Of a stretch of 64,000 nucleotides of DNA, positions 6,431 through 58,598 are shown piece by piece (the stretch's first letter is position 1; each line of letters opens with the position of its first letter). Made by a program: the position numbers and the translations under genes. The notes under the pieces are model-generated. The model searched no databases and was not told the origin of the DNA. It worked only from the letters and a program-made list of their open reading frames with translations. The DNA is taken from NCBI GenBank assembly GCA_965250195.1, contig OZ252295.1:1818887-1882886 (forward strand), in the 5' to 3' direction. Source of the DNA: Dehalococcoidia bacterium (GTDB lineage Bacteria > Chloroflexota > Dehalococcoidia > Lucifugimonadales > UBA2962).

Positions 6431-6517
6431 GCCGAGGTGGCGGAATTGGTAGACGCGCAACGTTGAGGGCGTTGTGGCCGCAAGGCCGTGGGAGTTCGAG
6501 TCTCCCCCTTGGCACCA
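6431..6517 (+). tRNA. tRNA-Leu(GAG): tRNA-Leu (anticodon GAG), CCA encoded
   Basis: Acceptor GCCGAGG/CCTTGGC. D-arm GTGGCGGAATTGGTAGACGCGC typical of class II Leu tRNAs. Anticodon loop TTGAGGG. Long variable arm. T-loop GGAGTTCGAGTCTCC. 3' ACCA. Confidence 0.9.
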
Positions 6518-6550: not shown

Positions 6551-6627
6551 GGCGCCGTAGCCAAGTGGACTAAGGCGGAGGTCTGCAAAACCTCTATTCG
6601 GCGGTTCGAATCCGCCCGGCGCCTCCA
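6551..6627 (+). tRNA. tRNA-Cys(GCA): tRNA-Cys (anticodon GCA), CCA encoded
   Basis: Acceptor GGCGCCG/CGGCGCC. Anticodon stem GAGGT/ACCTC with loop CTGCAAA. T-arm GGCGGTTCGAATCCGCC. 3' TCCA. Confidence 0.9.
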
Positions 6628-18539: not shown

Positions 18540-18596
18540 GTTCTCCGCTCTCTTCGTTCGCTCCATGGCACTTCGGCTCATGGTCTCATCGCTTCT
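18540..18596 (-). repeat. conserved leader element, copy C
   Basis: Sense sequence: agcgatgagaccatgagccgaagtgccatggagcgaacgaagagagcggagaac. About 80% identical to copies A and D. Ends 7 nt before the ATG. Confidence 0.8.
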
Positions 18597-18706
18597 CAGT
18601 GGGCCGCTTCGCTATCTTGATTACGCGTGCATTGAATCATTGCGGGCTCCCCTGCACAATGCGCCCTGGCACTTGGGACTGCCCGCAGGGCAGCAGAGGA
18701 GGCTAG

Positions 18707-19663: not shown

Positions 19664-20055
19664 TCGAGCGTAAAGCCGTACGGTAGCAACTCAGACGCGC
19701 AGGCCTCGACATGCTCGCCGTCGGTGCCGGGGAACGTCACGGTCGGGTCCCCAAACTCCATCATCACCTGCCTGCACGCCCCGCACGGGGCGCACGGCTT
19801 GCTCTCCCGGTTTGCTACCGCGACGGCGACCAGCCGCATGCCCGGCCCTTCTGTTGCTACGGCTGCTGCTATGGTGGCCTGTTCGGCGCAGATCGCCAGG
19901 CCGTAAGAGGCGTTCTCAACGTTGCAGCCGGAGAACACCGCTCCGGTTCCCGTCAGCACCGCCGCCCCCACGTGAAACTGCGAGTAGGGGGCGTAGGAGC
20001 GCTCCGAGGCCATCTCAGCGGCCTTTGCCAAGGCCGCATCGCTTCGGCATTTCAC
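19660..20055 (-). CDS. cdd: cytidine deaminase
   Basis: 131 aa. CAEQ and PCGACRQ zinc-binding motifs. Confidence 0.9.
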   Translation of the reverse strand: MKCRSDAALAKAAEMASERSYAPYSQFHVGAAVLTGTGAVFSGCNVENASYGLAICAEQATIAAAVATEGPGMRLVAVAVANRESKPCAPCGACRQVMMEFGDPTVTFPGTDGEHVEACASELLPYGFTLD

Positions 20056-20089
20056 GGTTGATTACAAGTCCTCGCCGTCATGCAATGAC

Positions 20090-20872
20090 TCACTCGGCTA
20101 GAGTCCCGCCGTCGGCTACTAGGGCGTGGCCGTGCACGAACGTCGCCCCGTCCGAGCACAGCCAGGCGACCGTGTGCGCTATCTCTTCGGGTGTCCCGTA
20201 TCGGCCAAGGGGCACCAGCTTCAGCCAGTCAGCCTCCGCCTCGGGGAACTTTTCCCAGTAGTCCTCGTTCCCCGGCGTGCGCAGAATGCCGGGTGCGATA
20301 GCGTTAATGCGGATGCCGTGCCTGGCGTACTCCAGCGCCGCCGACTTGGTCAGGCCGACCACCGCGTGCTTGCTCGCCGAGTAGGCAGACTGCGTCTCGT
20401 ACGAAGCCAGTCCCCGCATCGACGACGTGTTTACGATCACCCCTCTGGTTTGGGAGTCACCGACAAGCGGTTGCGTTTTCATCTGGCGGATCTGCGCCCG
20501 CATCCCCAGCCACACCCCGCGCACGTTGACCGCGAACGTGTGGTCGAAATCCTCTTCTGTCAGTTCGTCTGTGTTCACCCCGGCAGAAACCACCCCGGCG
20601 TTGTTGTGGGCGAAGTCCAGTCGTCCGAATTTCTCTATGGTCCTGACCACGGCGCGGTCCGAGTCAGCCGCCAGCGATACGTCCCCCGTCACCAGCAGTG
20701 CGTCGCCGCCCGTCGCCTCGACCATCGCCACCGTCTCTGCGCCCCCGTCCGTGTTGACGTCCACCACCGTGATCGCCGCCCCGTCCGCCGCCAGTCGCAG
20801 CGCCGTCGCCCGGCCAATGCCCGAGGCGGCGCCCGTCACCAGTGCAACGCGCCCGGTGAAGTCGTAGGTCAC
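20090..20872 (-). CDS. SDR-family oxidoreductase
   Basis: 260 aa. TGAASGIGRA cofactor motif, NNAG and YSASK catalytic motifs. GTG start. Confidence 0.9.
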   Translation of the reverse strand: MTYDFTGRVALVTGAASGIGRATALRLAADGAAITVVDVNTDGGAETVAMVEATGGDALLVTGDVSLAADSDRAVVRTIEKFGRLDFAHNNAGVVSAGVNTDELTEEDFDHTFAVNVRGVWLGMRAQIRQMKTQPLVGDSQTRGVIVNTSSMRGLASYETQSAYSASKHAVVGLTKSAALEYARHGIRINAIAPGILRTPGNEDYWEKFPEAEADWLKLVPLGRYGTPEEIAHTVAWLCSDGATFVHGHALVADGGTLAE

Positions 20873-20876
20873 GCGT

Positions 20877-20937
20877 GTTCTCCGCTCACGGGGTTCTCTC
20901 TAGGGCTCTTCGCGCGAGGGCTCATCGCTTCGGCAAT
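20877..20937 (-). repeat. conserved leader element, copy B
   Basis: Sense sequence: attgccgaagcgatgagccctcgcgcgaagagccctagagagaaccccgtgagcggagaac, followed by acgc and the GTG start. Confidence 0.8.
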
Positions 20938-20944
20938 CAATCCT

Positions 20945-22006
20945 TCACGCAAAAGTTAGTGCTCTCGCCGGGTTGTCGATTAGCACGGTGTCGATCTGGG
21001 CCTGCGTCCAGCCCCGGCCCCTCATGCGGGGCACGATGTTCTCCGGTATATGCGCATACCCTTTGCCGCCGAACCGGACCATCTGAATCTTCACAAAATT
21101 GTCCTGGGCGATGACCACCTGGTCGCCGTAGCCGTGCTCGAACAGCCACTCCAGCATCCACAGCCGGTGGTCGTCGTTGGTCACCACGAATTCCGTCGTG
21201 CCGGTCGTCTGGGCGGCGGCCAGCTCCGACCACTCCAGTCCGAACGTGTCGAACTCCAGATAGCATCCATAATCGGCCAAATCGCCAATCCAGCTGGGAT
21301 CGAAACAGAGACTGAGGTGCCCGAATATGACATGCTTCGGGTCGGCCCCGGCCGACACCAGCATCTCCATGATCGGCACTGGCGAGTCCTTGTGAAAACC
21401 CGGATGAATCAGTATCGGCGTGCCCGTTTCGGCCTGTGCTCGCGCCGACGCCCGCAGCACCTTCGCCTCGTTCGGCGTCATGGGCACGTGGTTGCCCACC
21501 TCGCCGATGACACCCGTCCTGACCTCCGTATTGCCGACACCCGTGGTTACGTCCGCGACGATCTCCTCGAAAATCGAATCCTCTGTGCGCTCGTCCATGT
21601 CCGGCGGGTGCGAGAGCGGCACGTAGTAGCTGCCGCCCATGACGATCTGCACGCCGGTCGCCCGCGAGATACGGGCCAGCGCCAGTGGGTCGCGGGCGAT
21701 GCCCACGCTGGTCGCGTCCACCATCGAGACGCCCCCGGCCAGCCTGTATCGCATGAGCTCCTCGACCGCTGTTTGCTCATCGTAAAGGTGAGTGTTGTCC
21801 TTCATCGTCGTCCAATAACGGACGACGTCCGACACGTTGTCAGTCGTGACCCGTTCCTCCACGAAGCCCCGGGCGGTGGCCTCGTCGGGCATGACGAAAT
21901 TGCACTCCACGTCCACCAGCAGGTGCTCGTGGGTCAGCGTAAAGCCCAGCGTACCGGGCTCGATCAGCCCCAGCACCGTCTGAACTTTTCCCGACTGATT
22001 GGTCAT
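20945..22006 (-). CDS. phosphotriesterase-homology protein (PHP-type, Glu at bridging position)
   Basis: 353 aa. GFTLTHEHLLVD and VIGEVGN motifs. Confidence 0.9.
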   Translation of the reverse strand: MTNQSGKVQTVLGLIEPGTLGFTLTHEHLLVDVECNFVMPDEATARGFVEERVTTDNVSDVVRYWTTMKDNTHLYDEQTAVEELMRYRLAGGVSMVDATSVGIARDPLALARISRATGVQIVMGGSYYVPLSHPPDMDERTEDSIFEEIVADVTTGVGNTEVRTGVIGEVGNHVPMTPNEAKVLRASARAQAETGTPILIHPGFHKDSPVPIMEMLVSAGADPKHVIFGHLSLCFDPSWIGDLADYGCYLEFDTFGLEWSELAAAQTTGTTEFVVTNDDHRLWMLEWLFEHGYGDQVVIAQDNFVKIQMVRFGGKGYAHIPENIVPRMRGRGWTQAQIDTVLIDNPARALTFA

Positions 22007-29913: not shown

Positions 29914-30407
29914 CCGACCCGGCGAGCAAGGTAAACGACGCGCTGGCGGCCTGGGGGATTGAGCACGAGATTATAGAAATCGACCCCGACTTCGCGGACA
30001 CCGCCCAGTTCTGCGAGAAGTACGGCTACCCGCCCGAGCGCAGTGCCAACACCATCCTGGTTGCGTCAAAAAAGGGCCCCGAGCAGTACTGCGCCTGTGT
30101 CGTACTCGCCAGTACGCAGTTGGACGTCAACAAGCGCGTGCGCAAGCTCATGGGGGTTCGCCGCGTCTCGTTCGCGTCCGCTGACCAGACGAAAGACGTC
30201 ACCGGCATGATGATCGGCGGTGTGACGCCATTCGGCCTACCCGGGGACGTGCCGATCTATGTGGACGAGGGAATCGACGGCCTCGACTACGTGATTCTGG
30301 GTTCTGGCAGCCGGTCCTCGAAGGTAAAAATGCCCGGCGGAGAGTTTTCCAAAGTTCCCGGCGCCCGGTTCATCTCCGAACTCGCCGTCCAGCGCAAGAC
30401 AGACTGA
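29910..30407 (+). CDS. YbaK/EbsC-type aminoacyl-tRNA deacylase domain protein
   Basis: 165 aa. NTILVASKKG...CVVLAS...GGVTPFG pattern. Start overlaps the upstream stop (ATGA). Confidence 0.75.
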   Translation: MTDPASKVNDALAAWGIEHEIIEIDPDFADTAQFCEKYGYPPERSANTILVASKKGPEQYCACVVLASTQLDVNKRVRKLMGVRRVSFASADQTKDVTGMMIGGVTPFGLPGDVPIYVDEGIDGLDYVILGSGSRSSKVKMPGGEFSKVPGARFISELAVQRKTD

Positions 30408-30414
30408 AATGCTG

Positions 30415-30479
30415 ATTGCGAAAGCGATGAGGCCATGAGCCGAAGAAGCCCTGACGAGCGAACCCCGTGAGCGGAGAAC
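30415..30479 (+). repeat. conserved leader element, copy A
   Basis: attgcgaaagcgatgaggccatgagccgaagaagccctgacgagcgaaccccgtgagcggagaac. The 38-mer at 30423-30460 is identical to the reverse complement of 54151-54188. Confidence 0.85.
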
Positions 30480-35299: not shown

Positions 35300-35382
35300 T
35301 GCCCAGGAAGGGACTCGAACCCCCACTCCCTAACGGGAAGCGGATTTTAAGTCCGCCGCGTCTGCCATTCCGCCACCTGGGC
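35300..35382 (-). tRNA. tRNA-Leu(TAA): tRNA-Leu (anticodon TAA)
   Basis: Sense sequence: GCCCAGGTGGCGGAATGGCAGACGCGGCGGACTTAAAATCCGC...GGGGGTTCGAGTCCCTTCCTGGGCA. Anticodon loop CTTAAAA, long variable arm, no encoded CCA. Confidence 0.9.
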
Positions 35383-46251: not shown

Positions 46252-47325
46252 GTGAAAGTGGCGAGCCAGACAAGCGGTTACATGACCGGAAAAGTCCAGA
46301 CCGTGCTGGGGCCGATAGAACCCTCAGCAATGGGTGTGACGCTGACGCACGAACACATCCTGCTTGACCTCACCTGCTACTACGCCCAGCCCGACGAGGC
46401 CTCCCGCCGCTGGTACCACGACAAGCCGTTCACTATGGACATGGTGGGCAAAGCCAACACCCTGTGGTACGTCAACACCGACAACGGCCAGCTATTCGAC
46501 GAGGCCGATGCGACCCGTGCCATCGGCGATTACATGCTTGCCGGTGGCAACACCGTCGTCGACGTGACCAACTATGATATCGGCCGCGACCCGCTCGCGT
46601 TGGCTCGCATCTCCCGCGCCACGGGTCTGAACATCGTCATGGGCGCGGGCCACTACGTGCCGAAAGCCCACCCGGCCGACATGGACGAGCGGTCCGAAGA
46701 CGCAATTTACGAACGGTTTCTTCGGGACATAACCCTGGGTGTCGGAGACACTGGCGTAAAGACCGGAGTCATCGGCGAACTGGGCAACGTCTCGCCCATG
46801 ACTGAAAACCAGCGCAAAGTCCTGCGGGCGGCGGGACGCGCCCACGCCGAGACCGGCGCCCCCGTATCGATCCACCCCGGCCACCACGAAGACAGCCACA
46901 TGGAGATACTCGACGTACTCGATAAGGCGGGCTGCCCGCCCGGCAACGTCATCATGGGTCACCTGTGCTGGACCGTCGACGACTACGAAACGCTCAAGCG
47001 CCTAGCCGAAACGGGCTGCTACCTGGAATACGACGTAATCGGCTTCGAAGGCTCCGGCCTCGAATACCTGGGCGGGTTTTTGGATCCTCTCAGCGACGTA
47101 CAGCGCGTCGAGCACCTCGAGTTCCTCGTCGGTTCGGGTTATGGAGACCGCATACTCGTGGCGCAGGATGTGTGCATGAAGTGGTTTCGAGCCAGCCACG
47201 GCGGCAAGGGCTATGCCCACGTGTTGGAGAATATCGTCCCCCGATTGCGAGCCCGAGGCTGGACGCAGGCCCAATTAGACGACATGCTCATTCACAACCC
47301 GGCCAGGGCATTGGCGTTCGGCTAG
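46252..47325 (+). CDS. phosphotriesterase-homology protein (PHP-type), tandem copy 1
   Basis: GVTLTHEHILLD and VIGELGN motifs. An alternative start is ATG 46282 (MTGKVQTVLG...). Confidence 0.9.
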   Translation: MKVASQTSGYMTGKVQTVLGPIEPSAMGVTLTHEHILLDLTCYYAQPDEASRRWYHDKPFTMDMVGKANTLWYVNTDNGQLFDEADATRAIGDYMLAGGNTVVDVTNYDIGRDPLALARISRATGLNIVMGAGHYVPKAHPADMDERSEDAIYERFLRDITLGVGDTGVKTGVIGELGNVSPMTENQRKVLRAAGRAHAETGAPVSIHPGHHEDSHMEILDVLDKAGCPPGNVIMGHLCWTVDDYETLKRLAETGCYLEYDVIGFEGSGLEYLGGFLDPLSDVQRVEHLEFLVGSGYGDRILVAQDVCMKWFRASHGGKGYAHVLENIVPRLRARGWTQAQLDDMLIHNPARALAFG

Positions 47326-48427: not shown

Positions 48428-49483
48428 ATGCCATCTGACATGTCAGGAAGAATCCAGACCGTGCTGGGCCCGATAGACCCGTCCGAAATGGGCGTGACGC
48501 TAACGCACGAGCATCTGTTAATAGACCTCGCCGGCTACTCCGTGGACGTCGAAGAGGCGACGTTGCGCGGCCTGTGGGACAGGTCCTACACCATCGACAT
48601 GGTCGGCGAGTTCGCCACCAAGGGCTACGCCAACAAGGACGTGCTACAACTGCTCTCTGAGGAGACGGCAACACAGGAGGTCCGAGCCTTCATGCTCGCG
48701 GGCGGCGGCACCGTCGTCGACGCCACCAACTGGGACCTCGGCCGCGACCCTCTCGCGCTCGCCCGCATCTCCCGTTCGACCGGGCTTAACGTCGTGATAG
48801 GCTCCGGGCACTATGTCCCCTCGTTCCGGCCCCCGGACATGGCCGAGCGCTCCGAAGACTCCATAACCGAGCGCATAATCGGCGACGTTAAACAGGGCGT
48901 CGGTGACACGGGGATAAGGGCGGGCTTGATCGGCGAGATCGGCAACATCCACCCGTCCGACGACGACCAGCGCAAGGTGCTCCGCGCCGCCGCCCACGCC
49001 CAGCGGGCCACCGGTGCCACCATCCTGATCCACCCCGGCATCGACGATACGTCGGCCTCAGAAATACTGGAAGTCCTGTCCAAAGCAGGGGCCGACCTAA
49101 CGCGCGTCATCATGGGCCACCTCGACTACTCCGTACGTGACCCGGCTCATCTCAAGGCCGTTGCCGAGACCGGTTGCTACCTGGAATACGACACCTTCGG
49201 CATGGAGCCCACCGGCCTCATCGAGTGGGGTCGCGAGGTGCCCATCCCCAGTGACGCCGAGCGCATCGACACCCTCGAATTTCTCATCGATGCCGGTTAC
49301 GGCGATCGCATTCTGCTCGCGCAAGACGTGTGTCTCAAGTACATGCAGTCAGTCACCGGCGGCCACGGCTTCGCCCACGTCGTCGAATCCATAGCGCCCC
49401 GAATGAGCGCGCGCGGTTTCACACCCGAGCACATCGAGGGCTTCCTGGTGACGAACCCGGCCAGCGCGATAGCTTTCGTCTAG
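48428..49483 (+). CDS. phosphotriesterase-homology protein (PHP-type), tandem copy 3
   Basis: 351 aa. GVTLTHEHLLID and LIGEIGN motifs. Confidence 0.9.
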   Translation: MPSDMSGRIQTVLGPIDPSEMGVTLTHEHLLIDLAGYSVDVEEATLRGLWDRSYTIDMVGEFATKGYANKDVLQLLSEETATQEVRAFMLAGGGTVVDATNWDLGRDPLALARISRSTGLNVVIGSGHYVPSFRPPDMAERSEDSITERIIGDVKQGVGDTGIRAGLIGEIGNIHPSDDDQRKVLRAAAHAQRATGATILIHPGIDDTSASEILEVLSKAGADLTRVIMGHLDYSVRDPAHLKAVAETGCYLEYDTFGMEPTGLIEWGREVPIPSDAERIDTLEFLIDAGYGDRILLAQDVCLKYMQSVTGGHGFAHVVESIAPRMSARGFTPEHIEGFLVTNPASAIAFV

Positions 49484-53271: not shown

Positions 53272-53673
53272 ATGTCCGAGCAGAACAAAGCGGCGGTGAG
53301 GAAGTACTATGAGGCGCTCGATGCCGGTGACGAGGCCGGGATGGCGAGCGTCCTGGCCGATGACTTCAAGGCCGACTTCATGGGCGGGGAGTTCGACAAG
53401 GCCGGCTACGTTGGGATGGCCATGGGGTTCGGGATCGCGGTTCCCGATCTCAAGCACGTGCTGGGCGAGCAGGTCGCCGAGGGCGACACCGTCATCACCC
53501 CGCTGGTCGCCACCGGCAGCCAGCAGGGCGAGTTGATGGGCATGCCCGCCTCCGGTAAGAGCTTCGATCTCGTTGGCATCGATACCCACCACCTCTCCGG
53601 CGGCAAGATTGTCTACCACACCGCCATCTTCGACGGCGGCCCCGGCGTGTTCATCAGCCAGATCCAGGCTTAG
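53272..53673 (+). CDS. SnoaL-like / ester-cyclase family protein
   Basis: 133 aa from ATG 53272 (MSEQNKAAVRKYYEALD...) after aggagga. Paralog of 35506..35916. Confidence 0.8.
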   Translation: MSEQNKAAVRKYYEALDAGDEAGMASVLADDFKADFMGGEFDKAGYVGMAMGFGIAVPDLKHVLGEQVAEGDTVITPLVATGSQQGELMGMPASGKSFDLVGIDTHHLSGGKIVYHTAIFDGGPGVFISQIQA

Positions 53674-53675
53674 TT

Positions 53676-53733
53676 GTTCTCCGCAGGGCAGGGCCGTGCT
53701 CGTCAGTGCTTCTTCGGCTAATCGCCTCACCGC
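53676..53733 (-). repeat. conserved leader element, copy E (orphan, no downstream gene)
   Basis: Sense sequence: gcggtgaggcgattagccgaagaagcactgacgagcacggccctgccctgcggagaac. 32/38 match to the A/D core. Overlaps the VOC stop codon. Downstream sequence is antisense to the SnoaL-like gene. Confidence 0.75.
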
Positions 53734-54128
53734 AGGTCCGGCGTGTATGTAATCCCTATGAGGAGCCCCTCCGGCGACAGCAACCGGGCCGTCGTCTGGC
53801 CCCAGGGCTCGGTCTTCGGCTCCTGCAAAAGCTGGAGCCCCTTCGCCTTCAGCTCTGTCGCCGCGGCCTCCACGTCGTCCACCTCTAGCTCGATAGTCGC
53901 TTGCGGTCGGGGCACATCGGCGGGCCACTCGTCCGTCCCGAACGTGCTGCGGGCGGCGTCGGTGAGCGTCCACAGCCCGAAGTGCTTGACCCCATCGACC
54001 TGCGCCACGGCGTATTCGGTACCGGGCTCCGGCTTGAGCGACAGGGACAGGGCGTCCCCATAGAACCGCCTCGCCGACTCTGCATCTGGCACGATAGGGG
54101 ACACCCCCGCCACAAACTGAACTTCCAT
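53727..54128 (-). CDS. VOC (glyoxalase/bleomycin-resistance/dioxygenase) family protein
   Basis: 133 aa from ATG 54128 (MEVQFVAGVSPIVPDAESARRFY...). The in-frame upstream ATG 54176 lies inside leader copy D and would add MSRRSPDERASRGEFF. Confidence 0.8.
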   Translation of the reverse strand: MEVQFVAGVSPIVPDAESARRFYGDALSLSLKPEPGTEYAVAQVDGVKHFGLWTLTDAARSTFGTDEWPADVPRPQATIELEVDDVEAAATELKAKGLQLLQEPKTEPWGQTTARLLSPEGLLIGITYTPDLR

Positions 54129-54134
54129 AAAAAA

Positions 54135-54196
54135 CTCTCCGCGCGAAGCGCGCTCGTCAGGGCTTCTTCGGCTCATGGCCTCATCGCTCTTGCAAT
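54135..54196 (-). repeat. conserved leader element, copy D
   Basis: Sense sequence: attgcaagagcgatgaggccatgagccgaagaagccctgacgagcgcgcttcgcgcggagag, followed by ttttttATG. Confidence 0.85.
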
Positions 54197-54405
54197 TAAC
54201 CGAGATTGGCTTGCAAGCCATCGGAGGTTCTTAGGAGGCGTGAACCCCCTACGTGAGGTTTGGGGGCCAGCCCCCAAAAAGCCCAATGGGGCAAGAACCC
54301 GAAGTATAGCACAAACGTTCTGTTAGACGGAATGGGCCCGGACCGCACCCCGGCCCCTGCATCCCAAGTAAGGGCCCCGCATCCAAAGGAGCGAGGGAGA
54401 CAACC

Positions 54406-58514: not shown

Positions 58515-58541
58515 CCACTCGTAAATCCGCAATGGATTGAA

Positions 58542-58582
58542 AGAGCCCCCGCCACAACAGGCGGGGGCTCTTTCTGTTGTTA
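58542..58582 (+). terminator. intrinsic terminator after the RRM gene
   Basis: AGAGCCCCCGCC-acaaca-GGCGGGGGCTCT followed by TTCTGTTGTT. Confidence 0.8.
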
Positions 58583-58598
58583 TAATGGCCCGTGCCCC

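Follow-up and report, generated by a model that had tools for sequence, protein, structure and literature searches.

A structured, modular interspersed repeat at gene boundaries in uncultured marine Dehalococcoidia

We analysed a 64,000-nt stretch of the genome of a Dehalococcoidia bacterium (assembly GCA_965250195.1, contig OZ252295.1, positions 1,818,887 to 1,882,886; hereafter the window), for which an initial annotation made from the sequence alone had described a conserved element of about 60 nt in five copies, A to E, ahead of unrelated genes. All five are present at essentially the coordinates given there, as judged both by reading the sequence and with a covariance model built mostly from other genomes. 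The element, which we call E1, is an undescribed repeat family that is lineage-specific to uncultured marine Dehalococcoidia.

The E1 unit is about 62 nt long, and the alignment and parsing of 74 units resolves its sense strand into a head, module a, a linker, hairpin b and a tail. The head, (A)CGGyn-RATTGC-nAAAGC, occurs once per array. Module a is invariant and consists of GC-GAUGA, a 3-bp hairpin a, GAAGA, an optional A and GC, with hairpin a being of one of two types, GGC-CAUNA-GCC or GCG-CUYG-CGC. The linker reads AAGCCCUGACGA in subfamily i and AGCCCUAGA, 3 nt shorter, in subfamily ii. Hairpin b has 5-7 bp, a 3-nt loop and closing pairs G-C and C-G, and is otherwise highly variable (62 distinct sequences); the tail reads GGAGA(G/A)(C).

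E1 copies in the window and their neighbours

Copy A occupies 30414-30479 on the plus strand and belongs to subfamily i. Its head GATTGC (30414-30419) follows the stop codon (30405-30407, plus strand) of a YbaK-like gene; module a (30424-30449) consists of GC, GATGA, hairpin a (GGC-CATGA-GCC), GAAGA, A and GC; hairpin b (30458-30472) is GCGAAC-CCC-GTGAGC, with tandem G.A pairs; and the tail GGAGAAC fills 30473-30479. The sole possible in-frame start of alr is the GTG at 30467-30469 (plus strand), which lies inside copy A, in the 3' arm of hairpin b, and the tail of copy A is therefore translated.

The remaining copies are on the minus strand. Copy B (20877-20938; subfamily ii) has its head 3-4 nt beyond the stop codon of a phosphotriesterase-family gene, carries a degenerate hairpin a of the GCGC type (GCCCTCGCGC) and the hairpin b GAGAAC-CCC-GTGAGC, and ends in a tail whose GGAG is 7 nt ahead of the GTG start (20872) of an SDR gene. 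Copy C (18540-18601) is a degenerate subfamily-ii unit with the head CACTGA, its GGAG lying 10 nt ahead of the ATG (18532) of a Meth_synt_2 (MetE-like) gene; its upstream neighbour is a divergent nucleoside-hydrolase gene, across a gap of ~105 nt. Copy D (54135-54197; subfamily i) has the fully Watson-Crick hairpin b GCGCG-CTT-CGCGC, and its GGAG is 8 nt ahead of the ATG (54128) of a VOC/glyoxalase gene. Copy E (53676-53731) is headless, with the hairpin b GCACGGC-CCT-GCCCTGC, and is not a leader: its GGTGA (53731-53727) includes the stop codon TGA (53729-53727) of that same VOC gene, and 2 nt separate the end of its tail GGAGAAC from the stop codon (53671-53673) of a convergent SnoaL-like gene. 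A decayed relic of E1 at 20013-20060 (minus strand; aATGCCGAAGCGATGcGGCCttgGCaAAG..) now codes for the N-terminus of a cytidine-deaminase gene (cdd). Both the alr start and the cdd N-terminus thus lie in repeat-derived sequence, which is of consequence for annotation.

Pfam confirms that the genes downstream of copies A to D are as unrelated as had been reported (alanine racemase, SDR, Meth_synt_2 and glyoxalase/VOC). A Shine-Dalgarno (SD) sequence had been placed 4-7 nt before each start; GGAG does precede the SDR, MetE-like and VOC genes, but the spacings of 7, 10 and 8 nt do not keep to that range, and the start of alr falls inside the element. Copies A and D share, as was noticed at the outset, an identical 38-mer (AGCGATGAGGCCATGAGCCGAAGAAGCCCTGACGAGCG), for which 100 shuffles lead us to expect no chance match, and a hand alignment bears out that copy E agrees with it at 32 of 38 positions. 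For B and C, to which a similarity of about 80% had been ascribed, identity is 83% for A-B, 79% for A-C and 73% for B-C.

The covariance model permits a non-circular test of these copies, since 15 of the 16 copies in its seed come from other genomes, copy C being the sole window seed. Applied unfiltered to the full window, it scored C (itself a seed) at 67 bits, A at 62, B at 54 and D at 49, followed by copy E at 26 bits (E about 1e-4). The next match was the relic, at 20013-20055, with 11 bits, and the remainder was noise.

Distribution and fold of E1

A scan of one genome per GTDB species with the pattern AGCGATGAGN7GCCGAAGN{1,2}GCC gave 91 loci (cited here by L numbers), about half of them from four Dehalococcoidia species of metagenome-assembled genomes (MAGs) that bear E1, namely CBN3_323.20, CB21_323.7, CB21_323.32 and SRP308112_co1_417. 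The other matches were three loci of one Acidimicrobiia soil MAG and scattered singles in many unrelated taxa; these singles contain no E1 by profile search, and the match in L058 sits inside a gene. The related MAGs are fragmentary and were sampled at their E1-bearing loci, and in these Dehalococcoidia loci together with the window, profile and covariance-model searches find 94-105 E1 units (94 covariance-model matches in 433 kb), or about one per 5-13 kb of the DNA examined. Stretches of the window have orthologs, at ~80% nucleotide identity, in several of the MAG loci, so the window comes from a relative of these E1-bearing Dehalococcoidia, which derive from Arctic Ocean metagenomes and may be of the SAR202 type.

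Units also stand in direct tandem arrays with periods of 44-65 nt: four units at a 44-nt period in L055, three in L065 and two at many loci. BOX elements of Streptococcus pneumoniae are likewise modular (boxA-boxB(n)-boxC), intergenic and multi-copy, are predicted to fold, and can influence neighbouring genes; to our knowledge no transposase is known for them. E1 resembles BOX in having one head per array and a core unit repeated 1-4 times (L055, L065, L085, L018), which is an analogy of architecture only; E1 belongs to another phylum, apparently bears no sequence relationship to BOX, and differs in its invariant GA-rich hairpin, in a GGAG tail that appears to be used as an SD and in its sense-biased orientation.

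The suggestion that E1 is not a described motif is upheld by Rfam. The whole window at the gathering threshold yields three tRNAs and nothing else, and the window tRNAs (6431-6514 and 6551-6624 on the plus strand, 35300-35382 on the minus strand) do not adjoin E1. At E<=10, the interval 53600-54400 gives chance matches only, the best on E1 being the C/D-box family sR3 with 11 bits and E=3.2; at E<=1, the elements of 18 loci (related and soil) have no match. A literature search by keyword and by sequence string found no description of E1 or of repeats containing module a.

With regard to structure, the statement that no convincing hairpin could be folded does not hold, for E1 has two hairpins that covary strongly. 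In a model-based alignment of 94 units, compared with 500 shuffles and with slid controls, standard pairs fill 89% of the cells as against 76% in the shuffles, two-sided changes occur at 8 of the 9 pairs of the two hairpins, and the covariation score of 0.263 (0.084 shuffled) is attained by none of the 500 shuffles, the slid controls scoring ~0. This alignment was fitted to the structure, and a second parse, anchored solely on the flanking conserved words, agrees with the covariation picture it gives. In it, positions 2, 4, 5 and 6 of hairpin b alternate as C-G/U-A, C-G/A-U, G-C/A-U and G-C/C-G. At the orthologous alr site the arms GCGAAC/GUGAGC of the window correspond to GCGAAU/AUGAGC in L075, a compensatory change from C-G to U-A. 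The earlier attempt failed because hairpin a has only 3 bp and because pairs 3-4 of hairpin b in the window copies are tandem G.A/A.G. RNAalifold on a plain MAFFT alignment similarly returned no structure, because the length variants of hairpin b were misaligned, a problem that was solved by a gapless seed, a hand-written structure and the covariance model.

The main non-standard state of hairpin b, G.A plus A.G at positions 3-4, is found in ~20 of the 62 distinct sequences. On the opposite strand such purine-purine pairs are C.U mismatches, which points to selection on one strand, as RNA or single-stranded DNA (ssDNA). The E1 fold is best on the purine-rich strand, the sense strand being 64% purine and 9.5% T.

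Module a is invariant in all copies, its unpaired purines included, and could be drawn as one continuous irregular helix that runs, from the outside in, G-C, C-G, G.A, A.G, U-A, G.A and A.G and then the 3-bp stem. We offer this as a drawing only, because the invariant flanks yield no covariation; natural A-to-U variants (GAAGUG, in copy C and L030) retain a G.U pair in it. Tandem sheared G.A motifs are a feature of the stem II extension of the hammerhead, of the box C/D and Kt-7 k-turns and of loop E, and hairpin b too often carries tandem G.A/A.G. The ..GAUGA-stem-GAAGA.. of module a resembles the UGA..GAA bracket of hammerhead stem II and the Kt-7 strand GGC-GAA-GA-ACC, both of which we take as likenesses and not as identities.

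A hammerhead was rejected at each of two sites. In module a, GCGAUGA has G and C in place of C3 and U4, and its GAAG comes with no stem III, GAAA or cleavage triplet; at CUGACGA-hairpin b-GGAGA there is no GAA, subfamily ii reads CUAGA, and there is no Rfam hammerhead match. A k-turn core is compatible with GCC-GAA-GA-(A)GCC opposite GAUGA-GGC, though the non-canonical (NC) helix would be poor and the would-be loop GAA is invariant. The GAAGUG variant (A-to-U at the would-be A2b, or A36-to-U) would break the A.G pair that a k-turn needs and argues for the zipped GA/UA/GA helix instead, and no ribozyme or k-turn family in Rfam matches E1.

Three further candidates were set aside or found weak. 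A small open reading frame or leader peptide within the unit was rejected, the indels not being multiples of three (hairpin b has 13, 15 or 17 nt and hairpin a 10 or 11 nt) and the internal ATG not being conserved. An intrinsic terminator was also rejected, hairpin b being followed by GGAGAR and no U-run, and the tail holding 0.19 T per 7 nt. Sense stop codons are enriched in E1 (2.7 per unit against 1.6), but the idea of a cassette with stops in all three frames is weak, with all frames closed in just 15 of 72 copies.

Gene context, turnover and the role of E1

Fifty-six E1 clusters have confident genes on both sides. The flanking genes are sense/sense in 21, convergent (the upstream gene sense and the downstream gene antisense relative to E1) in 17, antisense/antisense in 9 and divergent in 9, and for tight spacers (<=60 nt on both sides) the corresponding numbers are 17, 12, 3 and 2. 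Among tight co-directional spacers, E1 is therefore in the sense orientation in 17 cases and antisense in 3 (binomial p=0.0026). Within the window its strand tracks the genes, copy A being on the plus strand among plus-strand genes and copies B to E on the minus strand among minus-strand genes. This flip with local gene strand inside 64 kb ties the orientation to transcription and not to replication, and a replication-linked orientation is rejected for the window. A random orientation and position relative to genes had been named as something that would speak against a leader element; the orientation is not random, but the copies are not confined to the 5' side of genes either.

E1 is closely fitted between its neighbours. 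The upstream stop codon is usually 3-20 nt ahead of the head, and in ~11 copies it is formed by the element itself, either as the TGA in GATGA or as a T(G/A)A within the head. At convergent sites the stop codon of the downstream gene is 2-9 nt past GGAG in 18 of 25 cases. At two loci, in two MAGs (L083:440-520 and L090:6640-6720), the E1 tail gives way within a few bases to opposite-strand sequence (tggcggagagggcgggattcgaacccgc) that looks like the 3' end of a tRNA gene. Of the 34 clusters with a sense gene downstream, 17 (copies B, C and D among them) have a start codon in frame 4-13 nt beyond the GGAG of the tail. In 8 more, alr and its ortholog included, the gene starts within hairpin b, at an in-frame (G/A)UG of its 3' arm (GUGAGCGGAG).

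In these respects E1 behaves like the mycobacterial interspersed repetitive units (MIRU). These are repeats of 40-100 bp that sit between cistrons as direct tandems, mostly run in the direction of the operon and vary in unit number between strains. E1 likewise forms direct tandems, is intercistronic and is co-oriented 17:3, and stops and starts of the flanking genes lie inside it (GGTGA contains the VOC stop and hairpin b the alr GTG; ~11 stops and 8 starts). This likeness does not imply homology, and unlike MIRU, E1 is defined by covarying hairpins, has a unit that is not a multiple of three and no conserved small reading frame, and is also found in convergent spacers and antisense.

The strength of hairpin b depends on what follows. 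Ahead of sense genes, tandem-G.A and fully paired forms stand at 15:17, as opposed to 2:16 elsewhere (Fisher p=0.013), and the mean minimum free energy (MFE) of hairpin b is -5.0 kcal/mol in the first setting against -7.5 kcal/mol in the second (p=0.02). Such weakening is expected if structure beside a working translation start is kept weak.

The initial annotation had described a 5' leader, which is apt for copies A to D, all sense and 5' of genes, but not for copy E in its convergent spacer, for the antisense copies, or for the 26 of the 56 contexts in which no sense gene lies downstream. A gene-specific cis-regulatory leader RNA, riboswitch-like or an attenuator, sensing a common signal, would suit the conserved structure and the position of sense copies directly 5' of four window genes. 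We nonetheless consider it extremely improbable, given the unrelated functions of the downstream genes, the positions in 3' untranslated regions and between convergent genes, the tandem multiplication, and the turnover by which unit number and subtype vary at orthologous sites. E1 furthermore lacks an expression platform, having neither a terminator nor a helix that sequesters the SD, and it contains nothing of the CUCC type that could pair with the SD; nor was there any Rfam match, even at E<=10. Of the four roles that had been suggested, the translation-initiation cassette and the small mobile intergenic element fit best, and a riboswitch-like cis-regulator does not.

Turnover is evident at several orthologous sites. 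In CBN3_323.20, two E1 units (L003:6185-6304) lie between a hairpin and a conserved TTATAAT upstream of the ortholog of window gene 58599, and at the same site the window (58515-58598, plus strand) has a canonical intrinsic terminator (AAAGAGCCCCCGCC..GGCGGGGGCTCTTTCTGTTG) and no E1. The gene ahead of that terminator has a GGC-rich 3' end, implying a glycine-rich C-terminal tail. The SDR gene (20090-20872, minus strand) is bracketed in the window by copy B and the decayed relic, whereas the orthologous L021 has one E1 unit and no SDR gene, which is consistent with a gene having been gained or lost when the copies on either side of it recombined. Where the window has the single subfamily-i unit of copy D, the ortholog in L050 consists of two subfamily-ii units; copies B and C also differ from their L021 counterparts, and orthologs often differ in subtype or unit number. 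The 38-nt identity between non-orthologous copies of one genome is, by comparison, a signature of concerted evolution or repeated replacement.

At this stage we favour, with a probability of roughly 0.5, the reading that E1 is a modular structured interspersed repeat, BOX-, MIRU- or REP-like in its behaviour, which has been co-opted as a translation-initiation and gene-boundary cassette. E1 would be transcribed within the mRNAs of its neighbours. Where a sense gene follows, its SD would be the tail GGAG, or its start codon the GUG/AUG that hairpin b carries in the 3' arm, and hairpin b would be held weak; in a convergent spacer the stronger, fully paired hairpin b would probably be just a 3'-end structure, and elsewhere E1 may be a 3'-end structure or a neutral passenger. 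Spread and homogenisation might proceed via duplication, slippage and recombination between copies, or possibly with the help of a trans-acting enzyme.

Several points weigh against this proposal. Transcription, the use of GGAG and the roles of the hairpins are deduced from sequence, and genes were predicted with a home-made codon-usage model whose training set was these very loci. The p-values given above are optimistic, since related MAGs contribute copies that are not independent of one another. There are genuine antisense intercistronic copies, five of which were checked with Pfam: two MAGs share an antisense E1 at one site, with khpA and rimM on either side, and further verified sites are rpsI/MR_MLE, YjgF/GFO_IDH and NAD_binding/mutS. 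Conservation of the tail GGAG is just as high at sites with no gene after it, and stops as near as 2-9 nt show E1 to be simply filling compact spacers, so that the SD-like spacing could in part reflect packing. Some copies lie just past terminator-like hairpins (L070, L003) and so need not be co-transcribed in sense. As to the strand, hairpin a has 7 A.C mismatches in sense, which are G.U on the opposite strand, and the MFE of the whole element is alike on both strands. Finally, no spreading mechanism was identified from the loci examined.

The evidence of turnover also raises the alternative that E1 is selfish mobile DNA, whether a REP/RAYT system, an IS200/IS605 derivative or another hairpin-dependent miniature inverted-repeat transposable element (MITE). 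A transposase or recombinase encoded elsewhere would recognise the strand-specific hairpins and their flanks as ssDNA, the covariation of the hairpins would mirror the needs of transposition, and use as an SD would be incidental. We regard this as possible, at clearly less than even odds. It would account for the presence/absence and unit-number polymorphism at orthologous sites, for copies within a genome being more alike than orthologous ones (the A/D 38-mer as against the subtype difference between D and L050), for the occurrence of both orientations, for a strand-asymmetric structure such as that of attC or IS608 ends, and for the recurrence of module a, much like conserved IS-family ends, in unrelated repeats of other phyla (see below). 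It accords less well with the ends of the element: terminal inverted repeats do not exceed the shuffled level (best end-to-end match 6.3/16 against 6.1 with a shuffled 5' end), and no consistent target-site duplication was seen, the one candidate being an ambiguous TTAT at the single filled/empty pair of L003 and the window at 58.5 kb. For these reasons a MITE in particular was rejected. No transposase lies beside the copies examined, though no systematic search was made, and mobility would have to be joined by selection at the RNA level to explain both the 17:3 bias in orientation and the weaker hairpin b ahead of sense genes.

The comparison with REP, BIME and REPIN-RAYT is instructive in both directions. 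Like them, E1 is short, structured, intergenic, placed after stop codons, high in copy number and sometimes clustered, and both may plausibly protect the 3' ends of mRNAs. A REP is a single imperfect palindrome of 20-40 nt that carries a GTAG or CGTC tetranucleotide tag (PMC3733652). E1 differs in having two distinct hairpins (3 bp and 5-7 bp), parted and flanked by conserved unpaired purines, over ~62 nt; in carrying a GTAG/CGTC tag in just 4 of 72 distinct copies; and in that all the arrays seen are direct tandems, where REPs often form inverted pairs. No RAYT was identified in the E1-bearing loci, and a genome-wide RAYT search was not made.

Integron attC sites also come to mind, since they too are strand-specific imperfect hairpins just past a stop codon whose sequence varies and whose fold is kept, and since single genes (SDR, VOC) are bracketed by E1 copies in the manner of cassettes, the SDR gene being present or absent between relatives. 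E1 was rejected as an attC, having no RYYYAAC/GTTRRRY cores and ending instead in RATTGC and GGAGAAC. Unlike integron cassettes it is scattered among housekeeping genes (alr, khpA-rimM, rpsI) and forms tandem unit arrays; no integrase was seen near E1 copies, although no search aimed at integrases was made.

A site acting at the level of chromosomal DNA, for a nucleoid protein, for gyrase as with REP/BIME, or as a recombination hotspot, with no role as RNA, would fit a high-copy intergenic element at boundaries of gene gain and loss. We judge it very improbable: the strand-asymmetric non-Watson-Crick pairs and the 64% purine content point to a single-stranded fold, the orientation tracks the local direction of transcription, and hairpin b differs in strength between copies with and without a sense gene after them.

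On the co-option reading, many unrelated genes would owe their ribosome-binding site or start codon to E1, which offers a concrete handle on gene expression in uncultured Dehalococcoidia. E1 would mark sites of gene gain and loss with a strength tuned to context, and so bears on translation initiation, operon architecture and genome plasticity. Repeats of this type also break contigs and matter for MAG assembly and binning. E1 is a new family of a known kind of element, and its less ordinary feature is the cross-phylum, invariant GA-rich module.

Module a beyond the Dehalococcoidia, and the companion repeat E2

The Acidimicrobiia soil MAG SMAG_U8284 contains three near-identical composite repeats (L031:4646-4701, L033:189-280 and L079:61-116) with the module a GCGAUGA-GGCCUCCGGCC-GAAGAGCC (in DNA letters GCGATGA-GGCCTCCGGCC-GAAGAGCC), flanked by other hairpins (GGTTGGGG..CCCCAACC and AGAGCGCCCGCC..GGCGGACGCTCT). 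A scan of metagenomes (loci L092-L211), with a pattern too loose for E1, gave mostly chance matches and a few true E1 copies among those listed. At least 43 matches, in ~40 of the 120 metagenome loci listed and most of them apparently from soil, nevertheless have the identical module GCGAUGA-GCGCU(C/U)GCGC-GAAGAG(C/G)CC. All 21 pattern matches in viral contigs look like chance or coding sequence and serve as background.

On at least 30 or so of these contigs module a forms the 5' end of a different, multi-hairpin element of ~120 nt (for instance L200:3361-3484, L119:732-855, L157 and L183), which starts GCGATGA-GCGCTCGCGC-GAAGAGCCC and ends ..CGGCGG(A/G)AT. Its internal stems vary between copies in a compensatory-looking way, and by crude gene calls it is mostly downstream of a same-sense gene (13 to 5). 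Another family with module a consists of direct tandem units of 62-64 nt placed directly upstream of a start codon (three units at L161:1-200; also L129, L199 and L208). Module a is hence embedded in at least four unrelated repeat families, namely E1, the soil ~120-nt element, the 62-nt tandem leader repeat and the Acidimicrobiia composite. That it recurs both in soil bacteria and in an Acidimicrobiia MAG suggests that some factor or mechanism is shared.

In the window a second repeat family, E2, lies at 54200-54285 (minus strand), directly 5' of copy D, and comprises two G5/C5 hairpins (TTTGGGGGCTGGCCCCCAAA and AGGGGGTTCACGCCTCCT). The E2 sequence (CTTTTTGGGGGCTGGCCCCCAAACCCCACGCAGGGGGTaCCtACCCCCTACGAACCCCCGATGGCTTG) is highly conserved with almost no covariation, and has no Rfam match. 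Fourteen copies, 13 strong and one weak, are present in the DNA examined, those outside the window being in L055, L088, L090, L050, L042, L030 (two), L085, L081, L019 and L065. E2 is mostly just 5' of an E1 head in the same orientation, often precedes E1 arrays in the related MAGs, and in some copies is followed by a middle module (TGCAGCGCACCTCCGGCACGCATTGAGCACTC).

These observations allow a further reading of E1, as the binding site of a trans-acting RNA-binding protein. Module a would be its purine-rich non-Watson-Crick helix, binding next to GGAG would control translation of many mRNAs, and stand-alone arrays of several units would be sponges that titrate the protein, on the Csr/Rsm principle. 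The invariance of module a in all copies, unpaired purines included, its identity in the unrelated soil and Acidimicrobiia repeats, the GGAG directly 3' of hairpin b, and the arrays of 2-4 units with no downstream sense gene, often behind E2 (L055, L030, L085, L042), are all consistent with such a site. We find it distinctly doubtful, however: no candidate protein emerged, no promoter or terminator was found that would mark the arrays as separate transcripts, the associated genes have no functional coherence, antisense copies exist, and the conservation of module a could equally serve recognition at the DNA level. The broader idea, that module a is a widespread RNA (or ssDNA) motif read by a conserved trans-acting factor with E2-E1 arrays as sponge RNAs, is speculative, and we rate it as rather unlikely; if true, single units beside GGAG would, in Dehalococcoidia, subject a large number of unrelated genes to a common post-transcriptional control.

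Lastly, the window contains a set of regions (20945-22006, 46252-47325, ~47.4-48.1 kb and 48428-49483) that cross-match each other and related loci at 65-73% DNA identity. The first of these is a phosphotriesterase-family gene by Pfam, and the set suggests a paralogous amidohydrolase/phosphotriesterase gene family.

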